Assembly: GCA_964187785.1 (NCBI GenBank)
Contig: OZ076409.1
Coordinates: forward strand, 6,264,001 to 6,328,000
Length of the DNA stretch: 64,000 nucleotides
Source of the DNA: Amphiscolops sp. MND2022
Lineage: Eukaryota
Direction: 5' to 3'
Part shown: piece by piece, positions 18,891 through 53,075 of the stretch
Layout of the letters: the number at the start of each line of letters is the position of its first letter
Numbering within the stretch: position 1 is the stretch's first letter
Made by a program: the position numbers and the translations under genes
The notes under the pieces: generated by a model
Seen by the model: only the letters and a program-made list of their open reading frames with translations
The model's database searches: none
What the model was told of the DNA's origin: nothing

Positions 18891-21588
18891 TTCGGAATGG
18901 TTGTCAGGGAAAAAAAACGACAGAAAATAAAGATTCAAACTGTTTTTAACAGACACTCAAAACAAAACTGAAGTACTTTCACATAATTATGTAAATGATT
19001 CGTTAAAATAAAGGTAACAGGAAGCATATTGCATGTTTTGCCACTTGGTTGGATAAAAATTAGTTTTGAAATTGATGATCTCTTACTATGCCAAACTATA
19101 CTTATCAAACATACTACAGCAACGGCTCCGTAGCAAAACTAATCCAATGTACATATGTTTTTAACTATGTATCAACAAAAGGAGGAACGATTCTAGTTTG
19201 TTGATGAATGTTCTTTTTCAGTTTGATTGGCACTTCATTTTAGTGAACCGAATTTTTTCAGACGCGGTTTTACACCGTATTACATTCCCCTCTCGGGCTC
19301 TTTCCTCAATTTGGAAGTTGCTGGCATCGAGCTCATCAGTCTTTCAAAGTCCAAAGTCATATAGTCGTGGTAAATACTGTCTTGTTATTTCGGTTATGTC
19401 TTGAAACAAAGCATGTATTTGAGTTTGTTACCTTCAAAAGTTTTTGATATACGGCACTCCCCCGTACCTATTCGGCCGTTTACATTCTCGATTTGATCTT
19501 CTAACAAATTGTTTTATTTTGAATTTTATTTTTCACTCTCACCGATAGGTATCTCATCATTAGAATGCAGGGTTTATTCTTCTTCGGGATTTGTGCTGCT
19601 TGGCTTAGACCCGTTCTTTTCGGATGTATCTGGATTTTTCTTTTCGCAATCTTTTCTTCGTCTATTTTGACTTCATCGCTCTGATTGTCCGATTCTGTAT
19701 GATTTTCAGCTTCCCATTCAGTATATCTCGGAGTATCTCATTCCTCAGAATGTAATATCCGTCTTCCCCTTGAAGAAAAAGTGGACTTTTCGGGATGATT
19801 CTGTCTCCGATTTGCGATGCCCGGATTTGTTTTTTTTTCGTTCGGAAATACCATCGGTCCCGAAATTGTTTTCGGTAGTTACGGTATGTTCAGTTTCGCT
19901 GACCGCGGTTTGCAATGTTTTGGAGTTTTCTTTCGGGATATTTTTATCTGATGTTTTTTTTCCACAAATTTCAAAGTATAACCATTAACCGTATTTTTCT
20001 TTTTCGGTTGACTTTTCTGTTTTTCTTCGGCTTGGTTTTTGTTATCACGAGGTAGTTTGTGATGTCTCCGTCTCCGTCCCTTGATACGTAGATGGTCTTT
20101 TTGGCTTTTTCATAGCTGAAACAGACAGTGCGGACCAATCAGAAGGGTACAATTTACCGTCTTTAACCAGATTGAATACTTCGTTTCGTCGTTTTTCACA
20201 GCTATGTAATCCAAAGAATGTTAATTTTAATCCCGTTAAATTGTAAATTCTCTTTACGTTTATTGCTCAATAACCGAATTCGGTCAGGCTTAAGGTATCT
20301 TCTAAATTGGCCATCATCAGGTTCTTCATGTTTTGATTGCCCGTTCTGCTACTCCCAAACCGGTATGCATTCTTGGTGTGCAAAATTCGTTTTCAATTTT
20401 TTTTGACCATCAAAGCTCAATTAGTTCTTTCCAACCAACAATTCAGCCTTTATCCGAACCAAATCTTTCCGGTGTGCTGTATAATATTGTGCATAAGGTA
20501 AATTAGCACGTTCTTCGTCTCGTATATTTTACAAAATTCTACGGTTGGCTTTTTGCTAAATGTATCTTTCGCTAATAGTAATCAGCTTTCTCCATTGAGT
20601 TTTCAGATGTGTACTTTGTCTGTGAAATCAAATTGAATTTTTTGTTGCGGTTCGATAATTGTTTCAACTCTTCCGCTTTCGGCATTTGATACTTGAAGTT
20701 CTTACAGGACGCTAAGCAGGCTTTGCATTTTTTGACTTTATCTTTTATGTATTTGCTGATGTTTGGCCCCTGGAAAAGTTTTATCTCGGCAGCCATCTTG
20801 GTGGATCCGCAAGACCAATGTGTAGAGAGTGCAATAGTTTCTTCCGAAGTTCGGTCGGAACTACAATTTTGTCCTCATTTCATTGACAGTTTTTCGAAAT
20901 GTTGTCTCATTACAGTGGGGTAACCGGCAAGGCCTTCCAAAACTCGGAAAATGTTGGGCAAAAACTCGGGAATGCATGGGCGAGTTTTGTTGTTCATAAC
21001 TGAAAATCTCGGAAACGCATGGGCGAAGTCAACTAATTGTTGAACATAATCTGTCCATTCGTTTCCCACCAAGTGTGGCCTTTCAATTTGATAGAAACTT
21101 TGAATACATATCAAAAAATGTCCGAGATATACCTAATCAACTAAAGATAAGGATTTGCCGATTATCAGAATTTTAGTAAACCCTTCCCAGGTACTTTTTT
21201 TCGAAATAAATTTGAATAATGATTATCAAGCTTTCATGCTTCTCATCATTCCACCTTAAATCGAACAACTCTCATTTAATATAATTGAATAAGCTTAAAC
21301 TCATACTATATATCAATCAATAGGAAGATTAGGAGATTACAAGAAGATTAGATTGGTATCATAAGATCTTTCCGGGGGCTTGTCTTTTTGAACAATTTAA
21401 TCCTCATTACTTTTTGTTTGACTCAATTGTTTAATGTTATTGTTGTCAATTATTACAATGTCGCTCCACTACTGTTCTTTTGCCCCAAATCGAAAACAAA
21501 ATGATTCACAAGAGACTGATTCAATTAAGAAACATAATGGAAAAGATATCACAATTGTTATGGCAATGGATACAAAAAATGAATAAAT

Positions 21589-23156
21589 TTAAAAACTAAA
21601 CTGACTTCTGCAATTATTGGCTGCGGAACGACGATATTCGTCATCGCCATTTAAATTGTCCTGGAAACAATCGATAGATACTCGCACAGTTTTCAGCAGA
21701 AAATCGTTGTTAATTGAAAATTTTAGGCTTTTGATAATGTGGCAGAAAGTTTTAGGGAAGATTGGTGGGAGCATATCCCATTGTCGGCCTAGGGTACTGT
21801 CCCATTCTGCATTTTTGTGGAACTTTTCTGAGTCAGGATCTATATGAAATTTGACTTGGTGTCCAGAACCCATTAAAAAGATATTCTTGGAAATTTCGTC
21901 AACCAAGCAAATGTCCTGATTCATCATTGTGCGTTTGGACTGGGATATCCCGACCAAACGTTTCAGCGCTGACAGGTAATGAAAAGCTCTATTCACAGGT
22001 GAACAAGCTGCGGACAAGTCCAGAGCTTTCTGCTTCATGTAGTTTGCTTCTGTCAACACTAGCTTTACAGCTGGGTAAGTGATGGAGTAGCATCTGTCTT
22101 CTTCATCGACCAGTTTCGCCATGGCCTTCTTCATCTCCACGTCGAACCATATCTTCTCCAATTTCATCGTGAAGACCGTGCTCCTAATGTTTATCGTAAC
22201 GTGGTCACCTGATAACAGAATGCGAATATTCAGTTTCATTTAGTAATAATAATTTATTAACCACTTGAGAAAGATTTATGCGACAAAGTTTCTATAAGCA
22301 TGTAAATTTTTCGAGAGGACGCTCGTGGCAAAAAACTTGGTTTCAGTTTTTTTGTTTGATTTTTTTAGTACCGTAGAAGTTAGACTAGTAATAATCAAAT
22401 TGATCATTTACCTGCTGATGCAATACCATTTTCGCAGGGTACAATGTCCAGAAGTTCGTCTTTCTCGGCAAGACTCGCAATATATGCGGCAATATCAATT
22501 TTCTGTCTGGGAGTGGTTATAGTGGGTTCTGGTTCTGCATCTGTTTCTACTACTCTCTTTTTTTGCCGCGATGGTTGGACATCTTCGGGCTCCGAATCAA
22601 ACTCTGAAGGCTGCCTCGTGTCAGGATGAGTCCAGTTCTTCGGACGAATTTGTTCATAGTCGATGAACTGGATGTCCTTTGTGCGCCCGTCGAAGGAAAC
22701 AGCCATATTTTGCTGGAATGGGTCATTCATGACAACATAACCCGAGTTCAGCAGCTTCGACTCCTCGGCATCTTTTCTAACCTCTTCCAAACTAGGAATG
22801 TCCGCTGGTGATTTCCGTGATGTCCCAGTGAAAAAGATTCTGTCCCCTAGTTGGCGCTTTCTTGGGTCGGGGATGTCAAAAACGGTTTCTGCTGGCTTCT
22901 TGGATTTCCGGCGACCGCGGACATCTTGTAATACTATACATTTTCTAACCGGCCAGCAATTTTGGGGTGTGTTGGGGGACACTTCAATTCTGTCTGATCC
23001 GAATCGCTTCACAAGTTTATCGGGCCAATTGAGGTATTTCACTCGGATTCCAAATGATCCTTCAAACCCAATGATGCGAGCATCTTCCCAAATTTTTGTT
23101 GCAGGATCCAAAACTTGAACTTGCTCTTTCATATCAAAAACACTGATGAAATCCAT
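21589..23156 (-). CDS. Tudor/chromo-barrel-like protein; join complement(22412..23156,21589..22208), ~454 aa
   Basis: In-frame phase-1 intron (GCAG|gtaaat ... ttatcag|GT). N-terminus FDMKEQVQVLD...WEDARII...IRVKYLNW fits the PHF20-Tudor/MRG15 chromo-barrel pattern; possible second barrel (LGDRIFF...GYVV...MAVSFDG...FIDYEQIRP). C-terminal exon not recognised. Confidence 0.6.
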
Positions 23157-23431
23157 TTCAATTAATGAAATTAGTGCTTTATTTTTCAAGAAATTTAATT
23201 TCGTAAACGAGTATTTTCAGTATTGCATTTGCCACTAATGTTTATCAAGCAAGTTTGAGCAAATAAAATCGTTATCGGGACAAATGATTATCAAGTGAGT
23301 TTGATCGACTCAAATCGTTACATACGCATAAGATGAATTTTAAATGTCAGACGCATATTAATTAATTGTCAGACGCATTTTAAATGACAATAAACCCCCA
23401 GACACTTTTGCACGGAACATCCAAAACGTAG

Positions 23432-23760
23432 CACGATAAATTTATAATTTTTTGTCAAACGCTTTTCGATCAAGCAGACGCATTTCAAAATCCACGTGAG
23501 TGTGAGCACGCTAAAACTACAATTACTCGATTTATTTCCGATATAATCAATAACATCAATAACGTAATACGATAATTTTATAATATTTTGTCAAACGCTT
23601 TTCGATCAAGCAGACGCATTTCAAAATCCACGTGAGTGTGAACACGCTAAAACTACAATTACTCGATTTATTTCCGATATAATCAATAACATCAATAACG
23701 TAATACGATAATTTTATAATTTTTTGTCAAACGCTTTGCGAACCAGCAGACGCATTTCAA
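23432..23760. repeat. ~137-bp tandem repeat (about 2.4 copies) in the divergent promoter
   Basis: ACGATAA..TTTTGTCAAACGCTTT..GCAGACGCATTTCAA unit starts at ~23432, ~23569 and ~23705. Confidence 0.85.
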
Positions 23761-23865
23761 GAATGGAAACGCTAGTGTGGAAACGATAAAGTGTCAATAC
23801 GCTTTTGAAAAAACAACAACTACTAGAATAACTTCCAATATAACTTTCGACGTACGACAATCAGG

Positions 23866-26800
23866 ATGACAATACACCCCGAGAAGCTTCTGCACGATTA
23901 CACTGAAACAATTGATGGAAAAAGTTTTGTGGATGCTAAAATTTTGGATGTTTTTGCTGGGCATATTATAAGAGAAAAATCTCGAAAACTGAAAAGCGCG
24001 ATCGAAATAGTAATTGAAGGAACTGAATTAAAACTCGAAGATTGTGTAAAAAACAAAAAAAAACTTGCTTTGTTGCAATTGGAATATTGCAAATAATAAT
24101 TGTTCGTGGTTTACAAAGTGGGTTTCCATGGACACAATTACGAAGAAGATACGTGTCCTATTTTTTCCCAAATACGCCGCAGCTAATTCCCGACTCACAA
24201 CCTTTTGTCAATCCACTTCCAATGCCAACAATCCCAGTGGAGCAGTTTTCTAAACCTGAATCAGGTTTCAGTCAGAAGATGCATACAATTCTCGCAACAT
24301 TAGCAGCTACAGAACAAAAGCGGATTCATACTAAGGCCCAGAAGACCTCTCTGCATCAATTTGAAGCCAAGGCTCTGGTTAAGGGTGTTTTTTCAAACTA
24401 TTTATCGTACGAAAAGCTGAAGTCAGACATATTTATCTGTACTAAAACTGGTAGTTGGATAAATATGATCAACACGCTGAAAAAAACTTTCCATGTCGAT
24501 GGACTGGGTCAAAAACAACTAATTCCTGGTTATACGGCGATCAAAGAGATGTCAAAACCGATGATTTCAAAGTTTATATCCCTATTCAAACCAAAAAACA
24601 CTTTCTCGGGATTCAGAATTGATCTTGTACGTGCTATCAAAGTCATGACATTCATTCTGTTCAAAGGAAGAACTGATTTGCAAGGTCTGAAAGTTGATAT
24701 TTGGGGAGATGGTGTTCAAATAGGGAAAAAGGATCAAACTCGAATGGCCTTCCGTTTTCTCGAAGGAACATCTATCAGCAATCAGTCATCAGATGCACTC
24801 TTCTCTTTTGCTGTTTTCCAAGGTATGTTCTGCTATTTTGTCCTGCTGAATCTTTAAATATAATTTAGCTCTAGGTTAGCTTCGCACACTTTACAATACG
24901 TGTTTACAGGTCACGACGGTCGTTGGTTGCTAGAGCAAAATGTCGGGTACCTGGAACTAGGTGAGCAAGATTCCTCTTGGCTTTACCAGCAGACGAAACA
25001 ACTCCATGACGCCGGAGTCCTTTTAACATACAGTGGAGATCAACCATTCCTAAATCGCCTTCTCATTGGAACCTCTGTTGATCACATGGAGAGTGAAGAA
25101 AATCCATCAAAATTGCAGATGTATCTTGGGAATGACGATTCAGTTAAACCAGAAACCGTGCACGAAAAAAGTGGACATCGAGGTGATGTTCGCCTACCAT
25201 TTCGAACCACCATTCCTCATGAAAGTTTGACGTTTTTGCCAGACATCAGATGCGTTTGTCCCGACGGCACTCATGCAATAACAAGGTGTGTCGAGGGAGA
25301 CATTAGAAAGTTCATGGAGTTGAAAATTCTCCAATCTGAAGATGACTCAGCTACAGTTGATTATATTAGGGAAAATTTTCAGCGCAATTTGACCGAGAGA
25401 GGTTGGAAAGAGCCTGGCTTCGAATTTGACATTGACAAACGCAACAAAAAATGTGCTCCCATTTCCCTTAGTGGCAGAGAAGCTATCACTGGCATTGCTG
25501 ATATGTACGAACTTGCTGAGGCTGGTGTTCAGCATGAACTGTTCGAAGGAGTTTTTTCCGAGAACAAGACTGTTGGAGCCTTGTCGGGTACAAAAAGTGC
25601 AAGCATGAATGTGTTGAAAAATCTTCATCCCAATTCATTCGAAAATATCGAAAGCCCATGTCAAATGAAACTTTTGGTTGCAGCTGAACTCTGGAGAAAG
25701 TCACTAAATCAGCTTACCGTGCTGATGAGGACGAGGAAGAAATTCGAAGAACAGGACTTTTCCGACTATAAATACTGGTCAGAAATCCACTATCACATTT
25801 CGATTGTACTGTTCGATGTAAAACTAGGTTTGACACCGTACAGACTGAAACTGTGCCTGATTCCCCAGCTGTTAGAAGGAGGCTACATTGAATCACCCTT
25901 TAACCACCTGTGCGAAGGCCCCGAAAAATCAAATCATCATGTCCATAGAGACTTTCAGCAAAAGACCATGCGAGGGGGAGGGACAGTTCGACACGCCGAC
26001 CCCATGTTTCTCGAAATGTTTTTCACTTTCTGTTCTGGTCTCCGGTTTTCGACTTTGGAAGGCACAATCGACGAACAGCTCTCACTTTGCCATCAACGGC
26101 TTTTCAATGAACCCATAGAGGTGAACCTATCTTTTTTAGACTCCCTGGGACCAACTGAGAAAGCCATCATTCCCGTTGGAAAAGTTCGAGAGAAGTCCCG
26201 CCTTTTCTTGGGTAAGGATTTTTTTTGTACCTATATGCCCACGTCCAACTTTTTTAGTTATGAAACCTAAGTGGTATAAATTTAGCGAAATTTAGTTGGA
26301 TAAACCAACAATATAGTGTGAATTTTGCTTTTCTTGCGACTCCGAAATAAATGTAGTGGATCGTTGAACAAATGTTTGACTTGAGTTTTGCTGAATATTT
26401 GTATTGCACCGCAACACGTTGACAAATATTAGTCCTAAGTTACTCGGATGAAATACTTCCTCAAAACAGCAACAGATTCCAAGTACCACTGGCGTAGTGG
26501 TTACTTCGTGCGACGTTCCGTCGTTCCGCCGCTCGTTCGCTCTTGGTATACAGGTTCGCTTCTCTGCGCCGCTGTTGGTGCAGCCTTCGGTAACCAGTGG
26601 CTGGTATTGTGTCTGGTATTGTGTGTGGTAGCCATTGGCTGGTATTACTTGCCATAGATGTCGATTGCCGGTGACGACCGCGCATTCAACAACTGTGGCA
26701 ATTAGTGAGTAGATTGAGATTGGAATTCTCTCTGGCGGAAAGAGAAATCCAATCTCAATCTACTTATTTTTATGTTTTCAACTTATTATTTGCAATTAGT

Positions 26801-27833
26801 TCTTCGCTTAACAGTGAGTTTTGAATGATGCAATTACATACCTGTTCAGAACGATCGTAGCAAAGAAAATAGAATACAGTAGTGATATTATTAAAAGCAA
26901 CAAAAGGCAAATTTTAGAATCAAATATCTATCAAAAAGCATTTGACTGAAGGACTTGATATGTTTTGATTGAGAAATTATATTAAAGTCTCAATGAAACC
27001 ACGCTGTAAAAATAGGCGTTTTCGAAAATACTAAGTTTTTAATAATCTCACTACTGTACATGCAAAACCGTCTTAGAATTATACGGCAATAAGCACGTTC
27101 GGCAATGGAAGGACCACCTTAGAAACCTGTTGTTACATATTCGAAGTTCGGTATATAACCAATTGTTTTCACAGAACTAAACAATATTCCGTTTGCTCCA
27201 GGATCGAGATTCTTTCTGCACGGGAAATTCAATAAAGAGCAACGAATTCAACATGAAAACCAAGATGGAAAAACTCTTGGACCCGCTGAGTGTCTCAAAA
27301 AAGTTATCAAAAAAGCGGGAGGGAAAGTTCTAGAACGAGCAGCATTGAATACTCTCCTCTCCAGACACTCCAAGTTGCCACACATTTACGTGGTTCTCCA
27401 AAATGACACAGATCTTATTAGTGCAACAACGTCGTGTGATTCTTTGCCACAAGTGACAGAATTTATGGCCAAAGGAAAATGCAAAAAAAGGAAACTAAAT
27501 GAACCAAGTCGAACCAGTTACGTTTTACGACACTTGGCCAGTCGTGGACTTACGTTTCTATCCGTTGACTATATTTTGAAAAGTATCGAAACTTCAACAA
27601 TTTTGGATGTGGAGTCTTTTGCGTTCAAACCAGGGCCAGACATCCCATCAACTTCTGTTCGTGATCATCGCAAAATTTTCCTTCTTCAGAGGAATCCCGA
27701 ACTACAAAACACAACTTCAGCTATAACATCGGTACTTCGTAAACGACGAGAAATGCTGAAGAAGCGCGAACAAGAAAAAATGAATGACGCTCAGAAAGAA
27801 CACGATGAATCATCCTCAGACTCATCAGACTGA
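23866..27833 (+). CDS. RAG1/Transib/Chapaev-like DDE transposase with C-terminal BRCT-like domain; 23866..~24054, -1 frameshift, ..24822, 24910..26211, 27202..27833 (~960 aa)
   Basis: In-frame GT-AG introns 24823-24909 and 26212-27201. Ordered motifs KVDIWGDG, NQS..ALFSFAVFQGHD, YSGDQPFL, CPDGTHAITR, TPY, EGPEKSNH parallel the RAG1-core SCDG / YDEK / DALH / TNY / EGNESGNK blocks. Exon 2/3 junction LFLGSRFFLHG...LKKVIKKAGGKV...YVV...LSVDYILKSI fits BRCT. Confidence 0.72.
26877..27056. mobile_element. MITE in transposase intron 2
   Basis: TA|CAGTAGTGATATTATT ... AATAATCTCACTACTG|TA. Confidence 0.75.
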
Positions 27834-28235
27834 GAATCATTTGATAATCATAATTGATAAATCGTGAAAACTTTGATTCGAACAATAATAAATTATTTTT
27901 ACCTGTTTTTATTGTCAAAATTTAATTGAATCATTCGAATTGTTTTAAACAAATTCAAAATAGAAACGTACCAAAAAGTAGCAGCGCAAAATACTAAGTA
28001 AAAACCGAAAAGAAAGAATAAAACCAAATCTTTCAAAGACCAAGAACTGGAATTCAAAATTCTAAAGTATTACTACAGTAAACTGCGAAATTGCATCAAG
28101 TGCTGAAATACTTCGCTGAAAACAAGTTTCGAGATTTAATAATAATATATATCAATACAATGAAATAAAATAATAAAGGTTAAGAATATGTAAAACAAAA
28201 AAATTTTATCTCGAAAATGGTTTTCAACGAACTAA

Positions 28236-31200
28236 TCAATCAAGAGACCAAAAAGTGTTTCGACCGAGTTTTTTGTCAACAATTTGAAATAGGTGAGTTA
28301 ATGATATGTTCCTGTTTGGGAAATTGAGAGACATGTACCGGTTGATAGTTTGCACAAATTTTCGTCGATTGCTCTTGGATCGGCTGTCATTTTTGGAATT
28401 GAAGCTGAGGACATGTAGTGCTTTGGCCAGAAGCTCCCATTTCATTAGCCTACAGTTCCCAATGGCACTCTCTAGAATAACTTTCGTCATTAACGATAAG
28501 AAATGTGGGAAACATTTCTCAAGAGGTTCATCATTGTCCCGTTCCCTCTGGTAAACAGTCAAAGTCGTGTCTAAAAACATATATGCACAAGCATTAGTAA
28601 AACTGCCTCGAACCCATAGAAGAAGTAAAACCCGAATTTTTTTGAGAAATTAACTTAATCCGATTTTAATTTTAAAAATGAAGATTTTTTCGATTTTTTT
28701 GCTTTTTACCTTTTATCTCTTCTAACAAACAACTGAGAAACAATTATATGAAAACTGAATTTCAAAATTACCTAGATCACAGATGGTGAGAAAATTGAAT
28801 CCCACGGCCACGCTGTCCGCACAGGTTCTGACCATATGTATCATGCCTGCTGGCATGATCATTGACTCGCCGCCTGTTATCGTCACTTTAAACACTTGAC
28901 TTTGGAGGTGGGTGTCACTTGGTAGGAAAACATTTTGTTTTGTTGCCTCAATGCACCAATTCTCGAGAATTTCTTGGTTTCGAACTGTTCCAGGAATCAT
29001 GAAAAACTCTTTTTTACCGTGAAGAAGATGGTAAAAGACGCTGGTATTCGTGTAGTCAACATGCCAAGGTGTAATGGAACCTTTTTGACTGAGAAGAATA
29101 TAGCAATTTTGCTCCAGCTCAAAATTGAATAAATGAGACACTGAAAGTTCTTTAACTGCCGTTGGTACATCGAAATGCAAGTTCTTTGTGAGACTGGAGC
29201 TAAGATCAAGGACATTCATTGGGCCGCTCATAGCTCCAAACTCAATGGCATTTACAAAATCTTTTCCTGAGAGTGTCAAACACAGGAGTTTTTGCAGCTG
29301 AAATAGACATGTGTTGTATATGAAAAAAGAATACACTTCGAAGATCTACAATTTTGGTTTTAAAATATAAAAACCCTAATATTTTTTAAATGTTCGGTTT
29401 TCATTGGTGAAGTTAAAAAGACGAAGCCAAAAACGAACACTGACAGGTTTGTACATTCGGACAGATAATTGTACATCTTCTGCGTGTAGACAGTCTTCGA
29501 AGATGTTTCTTCGCGCTCCAAAGTTGATGTTGGGCAATTTCATACCATCCATATGTCCTCGAACAATACAGGCTCTTTTCCGCTGCAGCTCCTCCTCTAT
29601 TTCGCTGCTGGTAACATTGGTGCAGCAAACTCGCATCTCGGACCCGGAAGATTCTCTGATTACATCCAGCAGCTCATGATGCTCTGCTTCATCCACAAAT
29701 GCAACCAGAGAAACTTCTTCATCTTCTGCTTGAACCTGTTCGTAGCTGTTGGAATCTGAAACGAAAATTGTCAATATCATAATAAAGTTTTTTAAATGAT
29801 TGGTAGATGTTTTTCGAATACTTTTGATGAGTATCAGTGGATTCGTTTGGCAAGTAGTAAAATTGGTATGTAGAAATTTTGATATAGGTAAAACAATAGG
29901 ATTTTATTGTACCTTGGGGATTGTGTGTGGCTACTTCTTCACTTTCGTCTTCCTCACGGTTCTCTTCCTGGAGGGATTCTTCATTGCTGTCAGAATCTGA
30001 AACAAACATCGTCAAAATCAATTTAACGTTATTGAGATGATTGGTTGTTTGTCGAATATTTTCGATACGTAATATTGATATAGGTAAACAAGTCGAAGTC
30101 GTGTCTAAAAACACATATGCACAAGTATTAGTAAAACTGCCTTGAACACATGGATGGAACAAAATCCGATTTTTTTAAAAATTAACTCAATCCGATTTTA
30201 ATTTTAAAAGTAAAGATTTTTTGATTTTTTTTGCTTTTTACCTTTCATCTCTTTTAACAAATAACTGAGAAACAATATTTTATGAAAACTGAATTTTATT
30301 GTACCTTGGCGAACGTGTGTGGCTACTTCTTCTTCACTTTCGTCTTCCTCACAGGTCTCTTCCTGAAGGGCTTCATTGCTGTCGGAATCTGAAACAAAAA
30401 TCGTCAAAATCATTATAAAATTATTGAGATTTGTGGATGTTTTTCGAATATTCTCGATAAGTATCAGTGGAATCGTTTGACAAGTAGGCAAATTGGTGTA
30501 GAAAAATTGATATAAGTAAAACGATAGGATTTTATTGTACCTTGGCGAACGTGTGTGGCTACTTCTTCTTCACTTTCGTCTTCCTCACAGGTCTCTTCCT
30601 GGAGGGCTTCTTCATCGTTGTCAGAATCTGAAACAAAAATCGTCAAAATCATAATAAAGTTAGAGAAGATTGGATGTTTTTCGGATATTTTCGATAAGTA
30701 TCAGTGGAATCGTTTGACAAGTAGTCAAATTGGTGTAGAAAAAATGATATAGGTAAAACAATAGGATTTTATTGTACCTTGGCGAACGTGTGTGGCTACT
30801 TCTTTTTCACTTTCGTCTTCCTCACAGATCTCTTCCTGGAGGGCTTCTTCATCGTTGTCAGAATCTGAAACAAAAGTCGTCAAAATCATAATAAAGTTAG
30901 AGAAGATTGGATGTTTTTCGGATATTTTCGATAAGTATCAGTGGAATCGTTTGACAAGTAGTCAAATTGGTGTAGAAAAAATGATATAGGTAAAACAATA
31001 GGATTTTATTGTACCTTGGCGAACGTGTGTGGCTACTTTTTCACTTTCATCTTCTTGACGGTTCTCTTCTTGGAGGGCTTCATTGCTGTCGGAATCTGAA
31101 ACAAAAATCGTCAAAATCATAATAAAGTTAGAGAAGATTGGATGTTTTTCGGATATTTTCGATAAGTATCAGTGGAATCGTTTGACAAGTAGTCAAATTG

Positions 31201-33847
31201 GTGTAGAAAAATTGATATAGGTAAAACAATAGGATTTTATTGTACCTTGGCGAACGTGTGTGGCTACTTTTTCACTTTCATCTTCTTGACGGTTCTCTTC
31301 TTGGAGAGCTTCATTGCTGTCGGAATCTGAAACAAAAATCGTCAAAATCATTATAATGTTAGAGAAGATTGGATGTTTTTCGGATATTTTCGATAAGTAT
31401 CAGTGGAATCGTTTGACAAGTAGTTCACAAATTGGTGTAGAAAAATTGATATAGGAAAAACAATAGGATTTTATTATACCTTGGCGAACGTGTGTGGCTA
31501 CTTTTTCACTTGCATCTTCTTGACGGTTCTCTTCTTGGAGGGCTTCTCCATTGCTGTCAGAATCTGAAACAAAAATCGTCAAAATCATTATAAAGTTATT
31601 GAGAAGATTGGATGTTTTTCGGATATTTTCGATAAGTATCAGTGGAATCGTTTGACAAGTAGTTCACAAATTGGTGTAGAAAAATTGATATAGGAAAAAC
31701 AATAGGATTTTATTGTACCTTGGCGAACGTGTGTGGCTACTTTTTCACTTTCATCTTCTTGACGGTTCTCTTCTTGGAGAGCTTCATTGCTGTCGGAATC
31801 TGAAACAAAAATCGTCAAAATCATTATAATGTTAGAGAAGATTGGATGTTTTTCGGATATTTTCGATAAGTATCAGTGGAATCGTTTGACAAGTAGTTCA
31901 CAAATTGGTGTAGAAAAATTGATATAGGAAAAACAATAGGATTTTATTATACCTTGGCGAACGTGTGTGGCTACTTTTTCACTTGCATCTTCTTGACGGT
32001 TCTCTTCTTGGAGGGCTTCTCCATTGCTGTCGGAATCTGAAACAAAAATCGTCAAAATCATTATAAAATTATTGAGAAGATTTGTGGATGTTTTTCGAAT
32101 ATTTTCGATAAGTATCAGTGAAATCGTTTGGCAAGTAGTCAAACTGGTATGTCGAAAAATTGATATAAGTAAAACGATAGGATTTTATTGTACCTTGGCG
32201 AACGTGTGTGGCTACTTCTTCTTCACTTTCGTCTTCTTGACGGTTCTCTTCTTGGGGAAAGTGTGTGACTACTTCTTCTTCACTTTCGTCTTCCTCATAG
32301 GTCTCCTCCTGGAGGGCTTCATTGCTGTCGGAATCTGAAACAAAAATCGTCAAAATCATCATAAAGTTATTGAGAAGATTTGTGGATGTTTTTCGAATAT
32401 TTTCGATAAGTATCAGTGGAATCGTTTGGCAATTAGTCAAACTGGTATGTCGAAAAATTGATATGAGTAAAACGATAGGATTTTATTGTACCTTGGCGAA
32501 CGTGTGTGGCTACTTCTTCTTCACTTTCGTCTTCTTGACGGTTCTCTTCTTGGGGAAAGTGTGTGACTACTTCTTCTTCACTTTCGTCTTCCTCATAGGT
32601 CTCCTCCTGGAGGGCTTCATTGCTGTCGGAATCTGAAACAAAAATCGTCAAAATCATTAAAAAGTTATTGAGAAGATTTGTGGATGTTTTTCGAATATTT
32701 TCGATAAGTATCAGTGGAATCGTTTGGCAAGTAGTCAAACTGGTATGTCGAAAAATTGATATGAGTAAAACGATAGGATTTTATTGTACCTTGGCGAACG
32801 TGTGTGGCTACTTCTTCTTCACTTTCGTCTTCTTGACGGTTCTCTTCTTGGGGAAAGTGTGTGACTACTTCTTCTTCACTTTCGTCTTCCTCATAGGTCT
32901 CCTCCTGGAGGGCTTCATTGCTGTCGGAATCTGAAACAAAAATCGTCAAAATCATCATAAAGTTATTGAGAAGATTTGTGGATGTTTTTCGAATATTTTC
33001 GATAAGTATCAGTGGAATCGTTTGGCAAGTAGTCAAACTGGTATGTCGAAAAATTGATATAAGTAAAACGATAGGATTTTATTGTACCTTGGCGAACGTG
33101 TGTGGCTACTTCTTCTTCACTTTCGTCTTCCTCACAGGTCTCTTCCTGGAGGGCTTCTTCATCGCTGTCAGAATCTGGTTCGATGTGAACTCGACGGTAC
33201 CGACGTGACGTCCTTCTCTGTTCTCTTCTTCTTCTCGAATCCATCCTCGCTTGCCATCGTGGGTGTTCGATCTTCTTCTTTGGGGTCCCTTTGATTTTAA
33301 TCAGGTCTTTGATTCGATGGGAATAACCTTTCCCCTCCCGCCGTCTTTTTTCCGACCAGCTGTACTCTCCTGGCACATTGCCTTTGGGCTTTTTTTTAAG
33401 AACAGCGGATTCCCCTTTAAGATAAAACGATTTGTATTTTTGCTTCAGGCAATCGTAAGCAGAACTTTCCTTGCACAATTCCTCGATGTTTTCTGGTGTT
33501 GGTTCCAACAAATTTCCTGGGTACCATTCCTCCCTTTGCAACTCAAACACTTTCAGGGTGCAAGTTCTTCCGAGGGAGTGTTGAGCGGTCCTGTGATAGC
33601 TAAAGAACGGTCCTCCGTCTTTCTCGCCGCATCCACAAAAGCGACAAATAAAATTTGCCCGACTCTAAATTTTTTGTGCAATGCAGGTGAACTCCAGCTG
33701 GTGTTCTTCAACAGGTCTCTTCCTTGGTGCCCAGTCTTTGTACATGTGCCTCTGGCACGCAACTTTTTCGCTGAATTTTCTCCGGCATTCTGAAACACAT
33801 ATTCCGATTAGTATTGGTGAAAAACATGTTTGAAAAAAAATCGACAT
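28236..33847 (-). CDS. Zn-finger + acidic-repeat + JmjC histone demethylase (KDM2/KDM7-PHF8 type). Exons: ~33089-33847 (start uncertain; in-frame TAG at 33665-33667), 12 repeat exons, 29445-~29755, 28772-29297, 28236-28570
   Basis: MNVLDL, CYILLSQKGSITPWHVDYTNTSVFYHLLHGKKEF, GESMIMPAGMIHMVRT..DSVAVGFNFL and the downstream VYQRE....KCFPHF match the KDM2/7 JmjC and JHD helix. Fe ligands HxD...H and 2-OG residues T/Y/K/N are present. Splice phases are consistent. Confidence 0.82.
29755..33180 (-). repeat. Tandem array of intron+exon units (~230-240 bp and 298 bp) encoding DSDSNEALQEE..EEDESEEEVATHVRQ
   Basis: Each unit has a tttgtttcag|AT acceptor and a CAAG|gta(c/t)aat donor; the units I translated are phase 1-1 and frame-preserving. 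12 repeat exons, plus one copy at the end of the large upstream exon. Confidence 0.9.
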
Positions 33848-34404
33848 TTTAAATTCTATTTCAGATATCCGAACAGATCATCAAAATGATAATGCCATTT
33901 AAGACTTGGAAACGCATGGGCAATTTGAAACGCAGAAATACATGGCTTTTTCATTGCTTTTCATCACTCGGAAACGGATGGGCGAAAGTTCAATTCATTT
34001 TATGCCAATTAGCTTACGTTATTTCATACTTCGGTTTTTATCCCCTATTTTGAAACGATAATTGAAGGTTCGCACGTCATCAGGTAATTATCACCACAGT
34101 TGATTTGAAAAGCGTCCTTAAATGAGCTCATCTTCATGCAAATCTAAATAGCACATCCGCAAAGCTATTACCAACGGTATGTACTACTTTTTTCAATAAT
34201 TAAATAATTCATTATCAGAAATGAATAATTATCATATATGTACTATTTAATACGAAGATCACCATTTTTCTTTAATTATAATATACCACAGTTGATTGAC
34301 GAAGCGTCTTTGAATTAGTTCGAATTTGGATCGCTCAAGGAAAGGATTGAGCACTCACCATTCAATCCAAACAGTAGCTAGAAAACAGTCTCTTTTACAT
34401 AACG

Positions 34405-36820
34405 ATGAACCCTCCTCAACATGAGAAATCTCTCTCTTACACTGTCTTGGGGACTAGCCCGGCTGTGACAAATTCTGTTGCTCCAAACGAAACATTTGAA
34501 AGATTTTCGACTCCATTTAAACCGAATGAAAGCAACTTTGCATACTACATGAGTACTCCCTTGGATCAATCTAGTTCGACACAACAGTTGTATGGATCAC
34601 CCAGTGTGTCATCTAAAAGCTGGCCAAGTTTCACCCAAGTTGAACAAAGGATATTTTCACAAATCTCTAATATAGAAGGTGTGAATTATGAAGATAGCCC
34701 TTCGGACGTCTCGATAATGGTACAAGCTCAACTTGCTGCAAATCAAATGACACCTCTGTTAATCAACACTGCAAATCAACTGAACCACACTCCGAATGAC
34801 AGTACGACGAATCAACTGAGCCACACTCCAAGTGACAGTACGACGAATCAACTGAGCCACACACCGAGTGACAGTACGACGAATCAACGGAGCCACACCC
34901 CAAGTGACAGTACGAGCCACACTCCGAGTGACATCATGGCAAGCCAACTGAGCCGTTCTTCAAGTGATATCGCGGCAAGTCAGCTGAGCCAAACTCCGAG
35001 TGATATCATGGCAAGTCAGCTGAGCCGTTCTTGCAACGACACCTTGGCAAACATGGAAAGATGCCAACAGGAGATAGCGAACAAGCGGAAACTTAACCAT
35101 TATGATGAGGAAAACCATGGCCCAAAAAGTAAACGATGTGTTCCCAAAAACTATGAGAAAAATTTGCGAGAAATTACCCCAGTGCACCTAACATTATGCA
35201 CAACTGTTGAAGCGCGACTCTTGTCAGACCTTTATGACATAATGAAGCAATTCAAATTCGCAAAATCTCTAACCAGCATTGACAAAACCAATTTGTTTGG
35301 GGACCTCATTGCTTATTTGCTGGAATTTTCTATTCCAAAGTGTAGAGATCGCAAAATTTTGAGCATTACAACTCATGCCGTTTTACAAATGGTCCCTCAA
35401 ATTCAGCACAATAGAAGTTCTAACTCAAGTGACTTGTTAGTCTTGCAAATTGAAGATGAAGCTGGGTACTTGGACAGCTTCAGAATTCCTCACATTGTTG
35501 GAGAAGCAATGTTAATATATTTTGAAGCTGTACGACCGTACTTCATAAAACCTGAAGGTATCGACCAGAAAAAAAGGTTCATGCAGTCACCCAGTCAAGG
35601 GATACCACCATATTACGTCATGACGGAGCCATTCTTTGTCAACAGCTGGGGAAAAACACAATTCAAAGTGCGGAACATAAGAAATCGGATTGAACAGGTA
35701 ACTAATCAAATACTGTTTGATAAGAATTACTTGACTCAGTTTGATTTGTATTAGTCGATAGTAACCATAAGACATAATCACAAGTTGGAATATCAAAAAC
35801 ATCTTCCTTTTGCAGTTTTCGCTTATTTCAATAACTATCTGCGTGTTCTAGTTTTCCGACTTGACAAGAAACCCAGCCGAACGTGAAATGGACAGATTGG
35901 AAAGAACTGTCAAACTGATGACACTTTCAAAATGTTCAGCAGAAGAAGAATTTTGGTCTGAATCTTACCTGATGATGGAAGTCAAAAAACATTTGAGGCC
36001 CAGCGGACATTACGATGACAGAACGGTCATGAAAGTAGTCGAAAAAAGAATTCAAGCACTTAGGCATCAAAGAGCAGATATTAGGGCGGCCGAATACAAG
36101 AGCCACTACCCTACATCACTAGCTGACCCTGCGAAAGAAAGAGAGAGAATAATCGATTTTGCAAACTTGGTCAACTGGCCCCACTTCACAGATGTAAAGA
36201 GAGTCATGGATGCTTCTTCTAGAATGTCTGGGGTATCAAGATCTCGACAAAGTTCGCGCAAAAAAGCATTCAATCCAAATCTAGAATGGAGACTTTGCAA
36301 TACCCCTTACTTCCAAGATGACTTGAAAGATAGATGCGAAAACCAATTCTGGCCAGGCGTCTGCGATGTTGTCTATCCTACAATGGGTCGAGGAATAATC
36401 GCGACCAAACCATTTAACAAGGATGACGTTATTTTTGACTACCACGGACATGTAGAAGAAAACACGAACAACGTCGACTACTACTGCAGTCTGGACCCAG
36501 AGAACCGCAAGCCAGAATACTGCATCGAGGTTAAAACAAGGCCGGGAAGAATTATTGATGCAACCTCGGAAATATGCCCCATCCACAACGATGGCAGAAG
36601 GTGCCTTGCTCGATTGTGCAATTACTCAAGTACCTTTGATGGTGGAAAGACCAACCCAGCTTGTAACATGAAACTGGTCGAATTGAAATGTACATACTTG
36701 AAAAATAATCCGCGTTACGTGCTACTTATTGCAAAGCGGAAAATTGAACCCCTGGAGCAGCTGATGTTTGATTACATGGACCCCGAAGCCAATAGAATTT
36801 TCGGCGGTAATGCCGAGTAA
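34405..36820 (+). CDS. SETD8/PR-Set7 (KMT5A)-like SET-domain protein; join(34405..35697,35852..36820), ~753 aa
   Basis: Phase-0 intron (GAACAG|gtaact ... ttctag|TTT). C-terminal GRGIIATKPF.KDDVIFDYHG, IDAT, LARLCNYS, LLIAKRKI...EQLMFDY match SETD8 (GRGVIATKQF..GDFVVEYHG...RLINHS...EELLYDY). N-terminal Ser/Thr-rich 12-aa repeats. Confidence 0.85.
34775..35040 (+). repeat. 36-bp coding minisatellite (NQLSHTPSDSTT-like, ~7 copies)
   Basis: Repeated CAACTGAGCCACAC.CC.AGTGAC units inside ORF 34405. Confidence 0.85.
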
Positions 36821-36909
36821 AACCATTGATAAACTCGAACTTTGTTTTTAACTTATCAGTTTTTATATAATTTTTGTTGGAATATTAGTCATTGTCATCT
36901 AGTCAAATA

Positions 36910-37146
36910 CAGTGGTGATATTTTTAAAAGCAACAAAGCCGCTTCAAAGTCTGCGGCAGGTGAAAAAAAAACTTCAAAGTCATCCCAAAACATGTATTTT
37001 CGAAAAAATCTTCAAACAAACATATTTGTAAACTAGATAAAAATCTAGAATACGTTTATTTTTATAAGTTTTCATAAACCACTGCCGTTTTAGAGATATT
37101 CGATTTTGAGATTTGCCTTTTGATGCTCTCAATAATATCACTACTG
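36910..37146. mobile_element. MITE, same family as 26877-27056
   Basis: TA|CAGTGGTGATATT ... TTTGCCTTTTGATGCTCTCAATAATATCACTACTG|TA. Confidence 0.75.
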
Positions 37147-37653
37147 TATATTATCTTCGGGTTTTGTTTTCTTTGTCAATTTTGAATTCAAAATATGCCA
37201 ATGGATATTCCAAAAAGCAGATATCGATTAACACTCTCAAGGAATCATATAAAAGAACTAACTGGGGCAGACGGTCGGATCGTTGAGGAGGCTGATTTGA
37301 TCCCTATCAGTCAAAATGTGCTCCTGGAGAGTGACTTGTTCATCATCGGTCTCAACTTCCTCGTTTCCTGCAGCAACGTAGTCAAACGTGAAACATTCGG
37401 ATTTAGTTTTCCTATTATTCATGTGTTCAAATAGTGGTTGATGAACTGCGGGCATTAGTCAAAACATAGACACATGTAAGATTTCAAAAAGTTCATGTTA
37501 AAAACTAACTCTGACAGACGGTTGGCTCATCTCTGTCAGTCGAAACGCCGCGGTGTTCTTGAAGAACTGCTTCGGTACTGGCTTCTCTATCATGATGAAG
37601 GCTTGGCCTAAATTTGGGCTGAAAAAAACAACAAATTTGCCAAATTTACATTA

Positions 37654-37700
37654 AAGTGGGGTAACCGACAAGGCCTTCCAAAACTCGGGAATCCATGGGC
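37654..37700 (+). repeat. Internal direct copy of the transposon left end
   Basis: catta-AAGTGGGGTAACCGACAAGGCCTTCCAAAACTCGG versus catta-CAGTGGGGTAACCGGCAAGGCCTTCCAAAACTCGG at 20908-20947. Confidence 0.9.
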
Positions 37701-40700
37701 ACGTTTTGATATCCGTAACCGAATTTCTGGCAACCAAATGAGCAAAACTTTTGAGATTAGAATAACAGTGTATTTCTATATAAGCATTATATTTAATTTT
37801 TTTTGACTAAGAAATATCGGTGAATTCCCAAATAACATAAGAGCAAATAACATAAAAACAAAATTAGTTTCAAATAACATTAAAATGAAATGGGTTTCAC
37901 TAAACATAAAAATAAAATTGTTAATGAGAAAATATCAGTGGTCAAAAGCATACACAATTCAAAAGATTCACTGAAAAAAGTGTGGAAATTACAGATAAAA
38001 TTTTCTGAGTTCGATCGTTTTACCGGGTATTCGGTTTTATTTTTATGTTCTTTGACACTAATTTTGTTTTTATGTTATTTGCATTCATTTGTATGTTTAG
38101 TGAAACTCATTTCAATTTTGTGTTTTGAAATTAATTTTATTTTTGTTGTTTGTTCTTATGTTATTTAGGAAATCACCAACGTTTATCAAGAAAAAATATT
38201 GAAAGCAATTATTAAAACCAAAGTATTAAAAAGCCAACCCTGAAAGTTAATAAATCAACTGATTAACTCTAACCTGTTTCAAATGGTCCGGTAAGTCGTC
38301 TAGTTCAATGTCCAGCTTCCGGATCCGTAAAAGTAACGTTTTTAACATGGCAATGACAATTGAAAACAAATGACTAACTTTTACACGCACAGTATCAATA
38401 TGACCTCATCGGAATATGCGATGAAAGAATTTCGTCCAATCAGAAGCGAGTATTCGGTTTCGTTCATCAAGATTACATGTAGTTTGATCAACAGAAAAAC
38501 AAATAAACTTTTGCTCCCGTATTACAACAATCTTACTGATTTACTTGTGCACTTAAATCACTAAAATGGAAGTGAAATTACTTTGAACATTTAGTAACAT
38601 TCCACTTCTTGGAGCGTTGACTTTAACAACTGATAAGAACGTTCACACTTTGAAAAAATGGTGAATATCAGAACAATCATTTGATCAATTCTCAATAAAT
38701 AAATCAATGACGTTTCACAGGATACCAACTCAATTAATAAATATGAAAAAATCAATTGTTTTGTTATGATTGAAAAAACCTAAACTCATTTTATATATCA
38801 ACTATACTGTTCTTTTGCCCAAAACAAAGAATCCTGATTTTTGATGATTAGATTAATTGTCAATAAATAAATCAATGACGATTCACAGGATACCAATTAA
38901 ATTAATAAATATCAAACAACCATATATATCAATCAAGGTGAATAGTTGAATAAAGTTGTTTCTGTAGTAAGTGTACAACTATCAAACAATTTTTTGTTAT
39001 GATTGAAAAAACTTAAACTCGTATTATATATCAACTATACTGTTCTTTTGCCCCAAAACAAAAACGATTCACAGAATACTGATTTAATAAGTTCCAAAAA
39101 AATGAAATACATCAAAATTACATACTAACACATCATAATATACCTACACATCATAATACATCAAAATATTTGTAATTATCATAATTGCCCGATCATAATT
39201 GCCATTATATACAAAAGAAAAGAATAGTTAAGTATTAAACAGTATTAAAATAAAGTAAACTAAAATTTATCACGATAATAATCTTGCAGTGATTGGCCGG
39301 AACGAAAAAAGTATTAGGGTTATATTCCTGCAGATATCGGCTTCGGAACGAAGATTTTCGTCATTGCCAATTTTATTTGTCCCGCCTAAAATACTGGGAA
39401 AATAATAGTTGAGCTGATATTTCTTAGTCAAAAAAAATTAAGAATTTAATTTGATAACTAAATTAATTTTAGCTGAATTAATTTGATAAACCAAAAACTG
39501 AACACTGAAAATCTGCATGTGTAGATAAATATTGAGACACTTCCATGTCAAAGCAGTGTATTGAATTGGCCGAAGCGAGTGGCAGATCTATCTAAATCTT
39601 GAAATTCTTTGAGCAAGCGATGGAATTACTTGCCCAATTTACTCTCATCAACGAGTATGCATGGGCAATTAAAGCCATCGCTCCTGCAAAGAAACTCAAT
39701 ACGTAGCTTGTGCTTCCTCGGAAATCAATAGGCAACAGTTTTGGCTGCGAAACGAATGGGCATTTTTGGCCCATACATTCATTCATGTCCATCATTTTCC
39801 GAGCCGCACAACGAGTAAAATCTGCATTTTCGTTGCCGGTTACCCCACTGTAATGCTGTATGCTCTGCTGCTATGGTGCTGTCTTCTCTATTCAAAGCTT
39901 TTTTCACCCGGATCATTTCGGATTCCAATGTTGATTTCGCTATCTTGCTTTTTAGGTCTAGCATGAAATACGTTTCCGCCATTTTGATTGCCTCTAGGGG
40001 GATTTTTTTTCATTTCGGTGACTGAGTCGAAGATTTGGTTGATTTGCACGAGATAAGTTTTTTCCTTTCTCTTCTTTTTCTGGGTCGTCCATTTGATTTT
40101 CCGGGACTTATTACTCCGGTTGTATTTCTTCCGGTTCGTTTTTAGTTGCTTCAAAAGGCTGATAGCCTCCCCCAGTCGATTGGTGCGCGGCTGAAGCTCT
40201 CAGCCAATTTCAGCATTTTCCTCTCTGCTTCTTATAGTCGGTCGCGACGCGACACATATTATCCTTTGCGCATTTTGGTTGCAGCTTCGTCTCATTGTAC
40301 CGGGTATGTTTATCTCCCATCGTCTTTCCACTAATCTTCCTGTCTCCGGACTCTACTCACGTCGTGGAATATTCTCCTTCGTTTCTGCAAACGCCCCCTG
40401 TGGAAATAATCTCGATCCATTTCTTACCCAAAAGATGATAATGATACCGTTTGACAATTCTGTAATTGTAAGCGTTTTCAGCGTTTTATTTTAAGTGAAC
40501 TGCTAAGTGGACTAGTTTCCGCTTGTTCGTTTATTTTGTTCACGTCTCAGTTTCTCTCGAATCTGCCAGTCTTTTCTGATTGGTTACTTGTTTTGGGTTC
40601 GTTTTTTTTGTTCGTTACGTTCTGATATTAGCTCGTGATATATCGTCCATATTTTAATTACAACTCGGTTTGCTTGGTGGGAAAATTTATCACGTATTGT

Positions 40701-50166: not shown

Positions 50167-53075
50167 TCACGGACCGCATCGCTGGTACTGGTATATGCGC
50201 ATCAAATACGTTTCAATCTCATCGGGTGAACTCTCGTCTTTATTGGCTATGGTGAGTTCTTGCTGAATTTCGACCGGTAGCTTGCCGAATAAGAGCATCT
50301 TGATCACATTGTCGGCTTCGTTTCTAAAAACTTGTTTCGCGGTCTTTTTCAGGCTTTTGAGGCAATAACTGAATGTTTCTGTGGTGGGATCGTAGCGAGC
50401 CTGATCCCACTTGTAACGGGCCACTTCGTTGAGGCCTTCTTTTGCAAACTCCTTTCGAAACAGGTCCAGTACATCCTTGAGAGTCGTCAATGGTGTGATC
50501 TGGATCGATTGCCGGTATTCAATGGCTTCGTCTCGTAGGAGGCTTTGGAAGAAGTGGAATTTGTTCTCCTCTGTTATCTTGTTAGCCAGCGGACTCAGGT
50601 CTTTGAGGAGAAGGTGTTCAAACTCTACAAATTTGTTCTTTTGTCCTCTGAAGTTCGGAACGTGTGTTTGTAATAATTTGGTGTTGGTGGTCGAGCTCTT
50701 GATGCGGTGGGGAGTCGTCTCAATGGCATTCAAGAGTCTTTCTTCATGGCTTCGTGGTGTTGATTCGCCTTCTTCGTCGGTGTCATCGTCTTGGTATCTT
50801 TTGAGGTTTGATGTGAAGATGGATGTCGGGCGGATGGAGTGGGTGTCTGTTACTCCTGTCATCATGTCTCGCCCCAATTGGGGCTGCTTCGAAGGGCCTT
50901 GTGTACTTGTTGATGGGCTATCGCTTTTCGTTTTGTTAATAACTGCCATCATCAGGTCCTTCAGTTGGCAAAACTCCGATTGGAGCTCGTTGATTTTACG
51001 CTCTTAGTTTTCCTTCCTTTCAGAAAACTGGGAGGAAATGTCGGAGCTTTCATTCGTGTCGGAGTCATTAGAATTTGGTTCTGTCATGGCTAAATTCTTT
51101 AGCGTATTCTCTTCGGACGAGGGATCAATTATTTTGCCGTTTTTGAGCCTTGTACCTTGTTCGAGACTCATGCGAATTTTTAAAACGGAATGTGAGCGAA
51201 GAATGGATTGTTGAGATTTTTTTGGATGTATTTTCAAGTTTATGTCAATTGTAGAATATCTCAAATTCACTTGTTTGAACAGAGATGTCTTTGCGATGAA
51301 AGACTACAGTAAATCCGAGTAATTAGTATGTAGTGGAAACTAAAGCAATACGAGAGGAAGTCATCTAAACTTCATCACAATGAAGAATACTAAAGATGAT
51401 CGTTCAGTGTTTTTGCGAGTTGTTTTCTTGAGATGAGTTTCGGATGAATTTCTGAATAATTTTTTCATGAACTTACCAACCGTACGATAGTCGGTCGCAA
51501 TCTCTCACTGAGAAATCAATATGGTGGCTCAAACTACAGCAGTGCGCGTCTTTTTTCTGATTGGTAAGACGCAAATCTCTTACCAACCTTCGTTTCTATT
51601 AGTTGTTCCCAGCTGTTGCTAATTGGTAAGTCACGTGACCAGTGTTGCGAGCTGCCGTAGGATGGCTACATACCATGGTAAATCTACATATTTGCAAATA
51701 GTATTGAATCATCAGCTTTACAGTGTTGTAATTGCCTGCACGTTAACAATGGTTGCTATGGGCATTGAAACCAGATGAAAGCACTCACTTTTGCATCAAT
51801 TTCAAGCCAAATTAAGATGAAACACATCTAGCGATGAGAAAACGATGTTTTCTACACAATAACAGCAATACCTGATAGCATTTGTATACAGGGATGAAGT
51901 ATTGATGAAGATGTTAAAATATTCACTGTTTCCAAGCTCTAATTTAGCACATGATGAAACTGCGATGAAATCTCAGTTAGCTTTGTCCAAAATTGGCACG
52001 AATTAAAATTGTGATGAAAAAGAGATGGACTTCCTTCCTTATTTGCTATTTCCAACACGAAATCAAATTGGCGATGAATTAGGGGTGTATTTTCCAACAA
52101 ACAAGTAAACCAGCACTGTCACTCTTTTATGGATGAGTTAAGGAAGTACTTTCTCCTTTCTCTCTCTTTCTAGTTACGCGATGAATGAATGATGAGTTTC
52201 CTGTCTTAAGAAATGAGAAGCACATTCGAAACTACTAAAACATTCTACCGATAAATTCATGATGAGTTAGTGAAATTAAAGTCCCATGAAATCCTCTGAT
52301 GGATTAGTAATGAGATAAATTAAAATGGTCCCATATTTAGTTCACTCACAACTCTGAGGATGAGTATGTGATGAACTCTGGTAGAAATGGTTATTAAAAC
52401 TCTTTAGCAAATCCGCTGATGGATTTAGGATGAATTACTACAAATCGCAATTGAATTGAAATCACTGGCTAATTCACTGATGGATTAGCGATGAATTTTA
52501 CAGTAGCACCAGTTTATGCATGAAAAGTAGTCAATGATTTTAGTGGATGAGGAAAAGGTGAAGTTTCCTCTAGTATGGTTGCATGAACTAATACTGGGTC
52601 ACATCGAAGTAAACGAATTGTCACTGTCGTCACTCTGAGCCGGGGAGCATATCGAAGCAACAATTTTCATCATTTTTCTATCCTTCGGTCCAGTTTGACC
52701 GGAAAACTTTTCTCCCTTGTCGTGACAAGCCNNNNNNNNNNNNNNNNNNNNNNNNNNNNNNNNNNNNNNNNNNNNNNNNNNNNNNNNNNNNNNNNNNNNN
52801 NNNNNNNNNNNNNNNNNNNNNNNNNNNNNNNNNNNNNNNNNNNNNNNNNNNNNNNNNNNNNNNNNNNNNNNNNNNNNNNNNNNNNNNNNNNNNNNNNNNN
52901 NNNNNNNNNNNNNNNNNNNNNNNNNNNNNNNAAAAGGGAGGAGGGAATTAAGTACAAGTAACGTAGGCTTGCTCACAACCATGGCATCATATTGCCCCTA
53001 TCTAAGTACATGAGACATAGTATTTACATTATAGATATTTAGTAGACTATATTTCCACCATGCTGGCATGACACT
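50167..53075 (-). mobile_element. gag: LTR + leader + truncated gag (tandem copy 1 of an LTR retrotransposon)
   Basis: High-identity direct repeat of ~58150-60950; gag ORF 50167-50952 is truncated before the zinc knuckles; the LTR spans the N gap. Confidence 0.85.
52732..52931. other. Assembly gap (200 N)
   Basis: Run of N. Confidence 1.

Follow-up and report, generated by a model that had tools for sequence, protein, structure and literature searches.

A tandem array of intron-exon units in a predicted JmjC demethylase gene on a putative DNA transposon of Amphiscolops sp. MND2022

Results

The window analysed here is a stretch of 64,000 nucleotides (nt) from Amphiscolops sp. MND2022 (assembly GCA_964187785.1, contig OZ076409.1, positions 6,264,001 to 6,328,000 of the forward strand). 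It contains a putative DNA transposon that carries, on the minus strand, a gene for a KDM2/7-like predicted histone demethylase. Between exons A and B of this gene, twelve further predicted exons form an array of near-identical intron-exon units (Table 1), which would encode an acidic spacer in front of the JmjC domain.

Architecture of the array

The repeat unit is one exon plus one intron including the splice sites (12 of 12 internal units). All twelve internal exons (32930 to 29913) are divisible by three, free of stop codons and symmetric (phase 1-1), and each is bordered by a T-rich TTTCAG acceptor and an AG/GTA donor. An initial annotation, made from the sequence alone, had described stepwise tandem amplification of whole intron-exon units with AG/GT borders and frame-preserving exons, and this description holds for all twelve. 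The exon size that it gave (~80-130 nt) was inaccurate, as the exons measure 81-87 nt except for three of 141 nt, which are identical to each other. The 3x298-bp subfamily was correctly recognized; the apparent alternation of ~236- and 239-bp units, however, is one two-unit duplication, with identical introns 4 and 6. The unit periods are, in order, 242, 298 (three times), 237, 236, 237, 231, 231, 237, 239, 392 and 241 nt, and Tandem Repeats Finder scored the 237-nt period with 3096 and the 298-nt period with 2171. The introns are 150-157 nt long, with the sole exception of intron 11 (308 nt), and have a GC content of 0.27-0.30 (0.46-0.52 in the exons). Retention of any of the 13 introns would bring a stop codon.

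Together with the acidic tail of exon A, which represents a thirteenth copy of the exon type (unit 0), the units would encode 421 residues, of which 168 (40%) are Asp or Glu and 27 Lys or Arg. The acidic tract upstream of the JmjC domain that was postulated in the initial annotation is thus found in the predicted protein. A basic tract (28 Lys/Arg in 75 residues) adjoins it.

Table 1. Predicted features of the element and of the JmjC gene array (positions in the window).
Feature	Position	Strand	Remarks
Exon A	33088..33789	-	Cys/His-rich N-terminal region (likely Zn-binding), basic tract, unit-0 acidic tail
Unit 0	33174-33088	-	thirteenth exon-type copy, acidic tail of exon A
Unit 1 exon	32930-32790	-	141 nt
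Unit 2 exon	32632-32492	-	141 nt
Unit 3 exon	32334-32194	-	141 nt
Units 1-3	32037..32930	-	3x298 nt: 141-nt exon (internal 57-nt duplication) + 157-nt intron
Unit 4 exon	32036-31953	-	84 nt
Unit 5 exon	31799-31719	-	81 nt
Unit 6 exon	31563-31480	-	84 nt
Unit 7 exon	31326-31246	-	81 nt
Unit 8 exon	31095-31015	-	81 nt
Units 4-8	30865..32036	-	231-237-nt units, 81/84-nt exons; 4+5 resemble 6+7
Unit 9 exon	30864-30778	-	87 nt
Unit 10 exon	30627-30541	-	87 nt
Unit 11 exon	30388-30305	-	84 nt
Units 9-11	30305..30864	-	exons 87, 87, 84 nt; introns 150-152 nt
Intron 11	29997..30304	-	308 nt; holds 87% copy of last intron + first bases of last exon
Unit 12 exon	29996-29913	-	84 nt
Unit 12	29756..29996	-	84-nt exon + 157-nt intron, the most diverged intron of the array
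Exon B	29445..29755	-	start is a short repeat common to unit starts (likely seed of first duplication)
JmjC exon	28772..29297	-	KDM2A/PHF8/KDM7 type
Last exon of JmjC gene	28236..28570	-
Left terminal inverted repeat	20908..20930	+	23 nt, CA start, CT before
Right terminal inverted repeat	39833..39855	-	23 nt, CT after (likely 2-bp target-site duplication)
RAG1-like putative DDE transposase	24027..26270	+	two exons; Atlas features 0.92-0.94
BRCT-domain reading frame	27159..27833	+	E = 3.7e-6
Two reading frames, probably one two-exon gene	34405..36820	+	ends in SET domain, E = 2.5e-8
Unclassified gene, two reading frames	21589..23156	-	N-terminus Tudor/chromo-like by eye only, no Pfam match

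The JmjC gene

After the array, exon B, the JmjC exon and the last exon continue in frame. The JmjC exon matches the Pfam JmjC family (E = 1e-9), and its core matches KDM2A, PHF8 and KDM7 structures with E values from 6e-18 (best) to 1e-9; the H-x-D...H metal ligands and the 2-oxoglutarate Lys are present and align to KDM2A. The likeness covers the JmjC core only. PHD, CXXC or F-box domains accompany this core in KDM2/KDM7 demethylases, whereas no Pfam match to them was found in exon A, exon B or the last exon, and the gene has an unclassified Cys/His N-terminus and a long acidic spacer before the core. The zinc fingers proposed earlier correspond to no more than a Cys/His spacing in exon A, a pattern partly conserved in a 52%-identical homolog; the region has no Pfam or Atlas family match. 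At the spacer position, the same homolog has an unrelated Asp/Thr repeat. Acidic histone chaperones of the nucleoplasmin/NAP type possess a chaperone core fold beside the acidic tract; Pfam revealed no such fold in the flanking exons, composition being the only common feature.

A screen of GT donors at 33800-34400 revealed no convincing upstream exon, and no start was found. Among annotated full-length proteins of 306-2000 residues, none of 564 candidates was a longer JmjC relative at E <= 1e-10, which is weak evidence. Two matches were discarded as due to chance: the metagenome locus L001, sole match of its scan (GC-rich and unrelated), and the trypanosomatid repeat protein P0006 (41% over 31 residues).

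In this window, exon A contains an in-frame TAG codon (33667-33665) that had been overlooked in the initial annotation. Two codons separate the window from the most frequent public copy, and P0007 (12 contigs) is the same over 294 codons except for the TAG codon and one codon of the upstream intron. Of 20 fetched proteins covering the TAG codon, 19 have Tyr and one has Cys. Exon A is open, with Tyr at this codon, in 10 proteins of the window's family (family 1; 23 contig counts); note that broken copies cannot display the codon and that 8 of the 23 members of that cluster are outside the protein listing. The exact truncated open reading frame (ORF) with the TAG is absent from the searched public collection. 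Because the matching public copies have Tyr or Cys and the truncated ORF is absent, the stop probably reflects an error or a null allele of low frequency.

The array in public copies

Read-through ORFs identical to units of the window are present on 28, 26, 30, 25 and 23 public contigs, and exon B on 27 (units were matched by eye, and the counts are contigs, not separate samples). A comparison of unit number among copies, which had been suggested at the outset, indicates that this number seems to vary. A single gene call, P0190, spans five units whose order is almost that of the window, with seemingly one unit missing, and P0014 also looks one unit shorter; this may be real copy-number variation or assembly collapse.

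A second copy family (family 2) has its own unit type, with at least six internal-unit ORFs whose longest contigs all have the same length, and the units of each family match their own exon-A tail (ATHVRQ in the window's family, DRHVPQ in family 2). Family 2 keeps an array, and none of its listed exon-A proteins is in frame to the acidic tail, a frameshift for which a systematic homopolymer error is possible. In P0058, a family-2 unit intron is continued by sequence of exon A, through either rearrangement of this copy or a chimeric assembly.

Divergence of exons and introns

The window's family and family 2 were compared with translated introns as the neutral yardstick. There were 17/427 changes in the domain exons and 14/105 in the translated introns (p=0.0008), and the unit exons showed 7/29, 5/28, 8/29 and 6/27 changes, these being small counts from segments of our choice and from 61 family-2 unit ORFs (listed cluster members only). 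Units 0 and 12 differ from the domain exons (p=0.0003 and 0.008), whereas unit 0 does not differ significantly from the introns (p=0.16). Because the introns do not outpace the unit exons in divergence and the domains change far more slowly, the predicted domain exons are conserved under purifying selection and the spacer sequence is apparently without constraint.

The comparison of exon and intron divergence between units, proposed as a check in the initial annotation, gave the same picture: within the window array, exons differ by 10.4% and introns by 6.5%, partly a mosaic effect, and no sequence constraint on the unit exons is evident. Seven of ~24 exon changes (counted by hand) are synonymous (p=0.13), and the chance of no stop arising in the unit exons is 0.28. 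Splice-site retention had been taken as a sign of selection or very recent expansion; as a sign of selection it is not supported, as the chance of invariance is 0.35 for four splice-site bases and 0.12 for eight.

Origin and turnover of the units

The interior of exon A, where unit 0 starts, and the intron/exon-B junction have CAGATTC and ACAGC blocks in common, in the same frame. In the distant copies P0071/P0072, exon B opens with a longer unit-like start. In the scenario that we propose, the repeat inside exon A mispaired with that at the junction, and the exon-A tail would have been duplicated together with the next intron. The new exon would have been functional at both splice sites and symmetric in phase (1-1) from the start, because the two seed repeats share the reading frame. 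The phase symmetry would therefore need no selection, and reading it as adaptive is not supported.

Unequal exchanges would then have multiplied and homogenised the units separately in each element copy, which is consistent with the observed family-specific pattern. The events would include the two-unit duplication, recombination between 57-nt sub-repeats, two of which seem combined as mosaics in the short exons, and one insertion of last-intron sequence. Indeed, intron 11 is 308 nt long because it contains a 216-nt copy of the last intron of the gene (87% identity; 30083-30296, source 28550-28762), and short matches at both joins suggest a templated insertion. This copy holds a possible second acceptor at 30104 (+108 nt in frame). 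The unit introns are 84-100% alike, and the intron of unit 12 is 13-16% diverged from the others; the very recent expansion assumed earlier is thus acceptable for the middle of the array and not for the last unit. The intron tree has little resolution, with strong support for none of its 8 branches. As short introns with splice sites that the gene itself requires, the unit introns would be spliced by default and most units included. At the protein level, selection has maintained the domains and not the spacer sequence.

Alternative explanations

We consider it fairly likely that the twelve near-identical units encode a predicted acidic, probably disordered spacer that grew by unequal crossing-over and whose length is tolerated rather than selected. 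Several points weigh against this interpretation. All exon indel types preserve the frame (3/3 are multiples of three, versus 3/5 among introns), and the two families have roughly the same proportion of acidic residues; both observations would also be expected under weak selection for reading frame and charge. Of the read-through peptide occurrences, 157 of 158 are compatible with an intact acceptor and 132 of 134 with an intact donor; most of these come from repeat assemblies of a few loci and are not independent. Arrays of several units exist in at least three copy families, and length could therefore be favoured. The divergence test depends on its intron yardstick and on few, chosen segments, the array may have produced the seed repeat instead of arising from it, and the inclusion of the units in transcripts is an unproven prediction from splice sites. 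In line with the initial annotation, the spacer might instead be selected, its length or charge being tuned by copy number or exon skipping in a way that aids histone engagement; the arrays in several families and the read-through counts fit this view, as do the acidic residues beside the basic tract and the lack of frame-breaking indels in the window exons. We regard it as unlikely, however, as the unit exons evolve at intron-like rates, splice-site retention and stop absence are within chance, the spacer of the distant homolog is composed differently and the phase symmetry can be explained without selection.

Quite improbable is a scenario in which the gene had lost expression or function before most units formed, or the units are skipped, so that the array is a minisatellite preserving exon-like sequence. 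It would accommodate the TAG in the window's exon A, the frameshifted exon A of family 2, the failure to find an upstream exon or start, and, as weak evidence, the lack of annotated full-length proteins at E <= 1e-10. It is at odds with the open exon A in ten family-1 proteins, the absence of the truncated ORF from the collection and the purifying selection on the domain exons; furthermore, the gene depends on the very donor that each unit carries, and the unit acceptors are of equal quality. An assembly artefact, which the initial annotation had named as a possible refutation of its array, is highly improbable. The scaffold is gapped (200 N at 52732-52931) and shows the two-codon difference mentioned above, but unit peptides identical to those of the window occur on 23-30 contigs each, the units differ among themselves in ordered ways, and P0190 repeats five of them almost in order. 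Tolerated expansion of the spacer thus remains our preferred interpretation.

The carrier element

Perfect inverted repeats of 23 nt, each adjoined by CT at its outer end, bound an 18.9-kb element (20908-39855), where the 2-nt flank match alone is weak evidence for a target-site duplication. The 18-nt core of these repeats has three matches in the window versus none in 100 shuffles. An alternative delimitation by 18-nt repeats flanked by TA was replaced by the 23-nt/CT ends, which are preferred because a third copy, inside the element, begins at the same position. This partial left-end copy (37649-37691; 93% over 43 nt) is possibly a nested or truncated relative.

For the putative transposase, 8 of the 10 best Atlas family matches share family or clan with the best one, RAG1, with a recognition score (2183) below the 2300 mark. 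No PDB sequence match and no phage match was found. The C(2)C motif was not detected in the 468-residue ORF, which has one H-x4-H at residue 100, and the single-sequence model was unusable (predicted local distance difference test score of 30). Diverged copies of the multi-gene cassette are present on other contigs, and family-2 contigs have the same cassette genes; we infer paralogy and mobility from these copies, which could be paralogs or alleles. The element is therefore best described as a putative DNA transposon, possibly of an undescribed family with chromatin-modifying cargo.

Discussion

Iterated intron-exon arrays are already known, and the novelty of the locus lies more in the carrier element. 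The Argiope MaSp2 and flagelliform spidroin genes contain iterated homogenised intron-exon units, including alternating ones (PMC9779670). As in the window, introns are homogenised within a gene and differ between paralogs, a two-unit alternation occurs, and unequal crossing-over was proposed. The spidroin repeat, however, forms the main, functional part of a structural protein (PMC9779670), whereas the array described here would separate the domains of a predicted nuclear enzyme encoded by a putative mobile element, and nothing indicates that its sequence is constrained. It is common for disordered proteins to be composed of modules from tandem symmetric exons; examples are calpastatin, MAP2 and the acidic SIBLING/enamel proteins, whose disordered and often acidic modules were likewise gained by internal tandem duplication (PMC3632108). 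These are old host genes with diverged introns, in contrast to the highly similar introns and the turnover between element copies seen here. The birth of a symmetric exon appears traceable to a short in-frame seed repeat in the window, and the several element copies represent replicate histories of array turnover. The locus is also a caution that coding exons can hide in satellite-like DNA.

Fungal transposons carrying chromatin dioxygenases (TET/JBP) have been described (PMC12730594). The fungal TET-carrying/CMCT-clade transposons share with the window element the CA..TG termini, a 2-bp flanking repeat, a dioxygenase cargo of anti-silencing type and, tentatively, a RAG1-like transposase, and the termini resemble those of PlavakaB (CATCA..TGATG) (PMC12730594). 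In contrast, the window element has a probable animal host, as judged from the neighbouring genes and the Atlas taxa, and a cargo of histone JmjC, SET and BRCT genes instead of TET/JBP, and its transposase ORF differs from the CMCT clade in the undetected C(2)C motif. Endogenous giant viruses of Amoebidium hold KDM4-like JmjC genes (PMC11244446), which are also intron-containing JmjC genes on a genomic parasite; these are giant-virus insertions of the KDM4 class rather than a terminal-repeat element with a KDM2/7-class gene. No description of a RAG1-like element with JmjC and SET genes, or of such an array within one, was found in listings of the open-access literature, which do not cover Repbase-type reports.

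An animal transposon that combines histone demethylase and SET genes would parallel the TET-carrying transposons of fungi. One could imagine, as a rather improbable extension, an undescribed animal DNA transposon family with its own histone-methylation kit (JmjC eraser, SET writer, BRCT, possible Tudor-like reader), in which the acidic arm of the demethylase is expandable, alternatively spliceable and retuned in each copy, serving anti-silencing in an arms race with host chromatin. The carrier element may thus matter more than the array, as transposon-encoded anti-silencing would become testable in an animal.

Other features of the window

The first exon of the SET gene contains in-exon 36-nt tandem repeats rich in Ser, Thr and Gln (34774-35050). 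A short motif is common to the left subterminal region and the JmjC-SET intergenic region (21024, 33921 and 33983, minus strand), and a 76-nt inverted pair flanks the BRCT, JmjC and SET genes (26865-26940 and 37083-37158). Between two genes of the element lies a 136-nt tandem repeat of ~2.5 copies (23416-23790). Outside the element, there are two gag-like ORFs (50167-51003 and 57723-58970), one with zinc knuckles, in an ~8-kb direct duplication that spans the N gap, and a multi-exon host gene for an M28 peptidase, glutaminyl-cyclase-like by eye (4800-10658).

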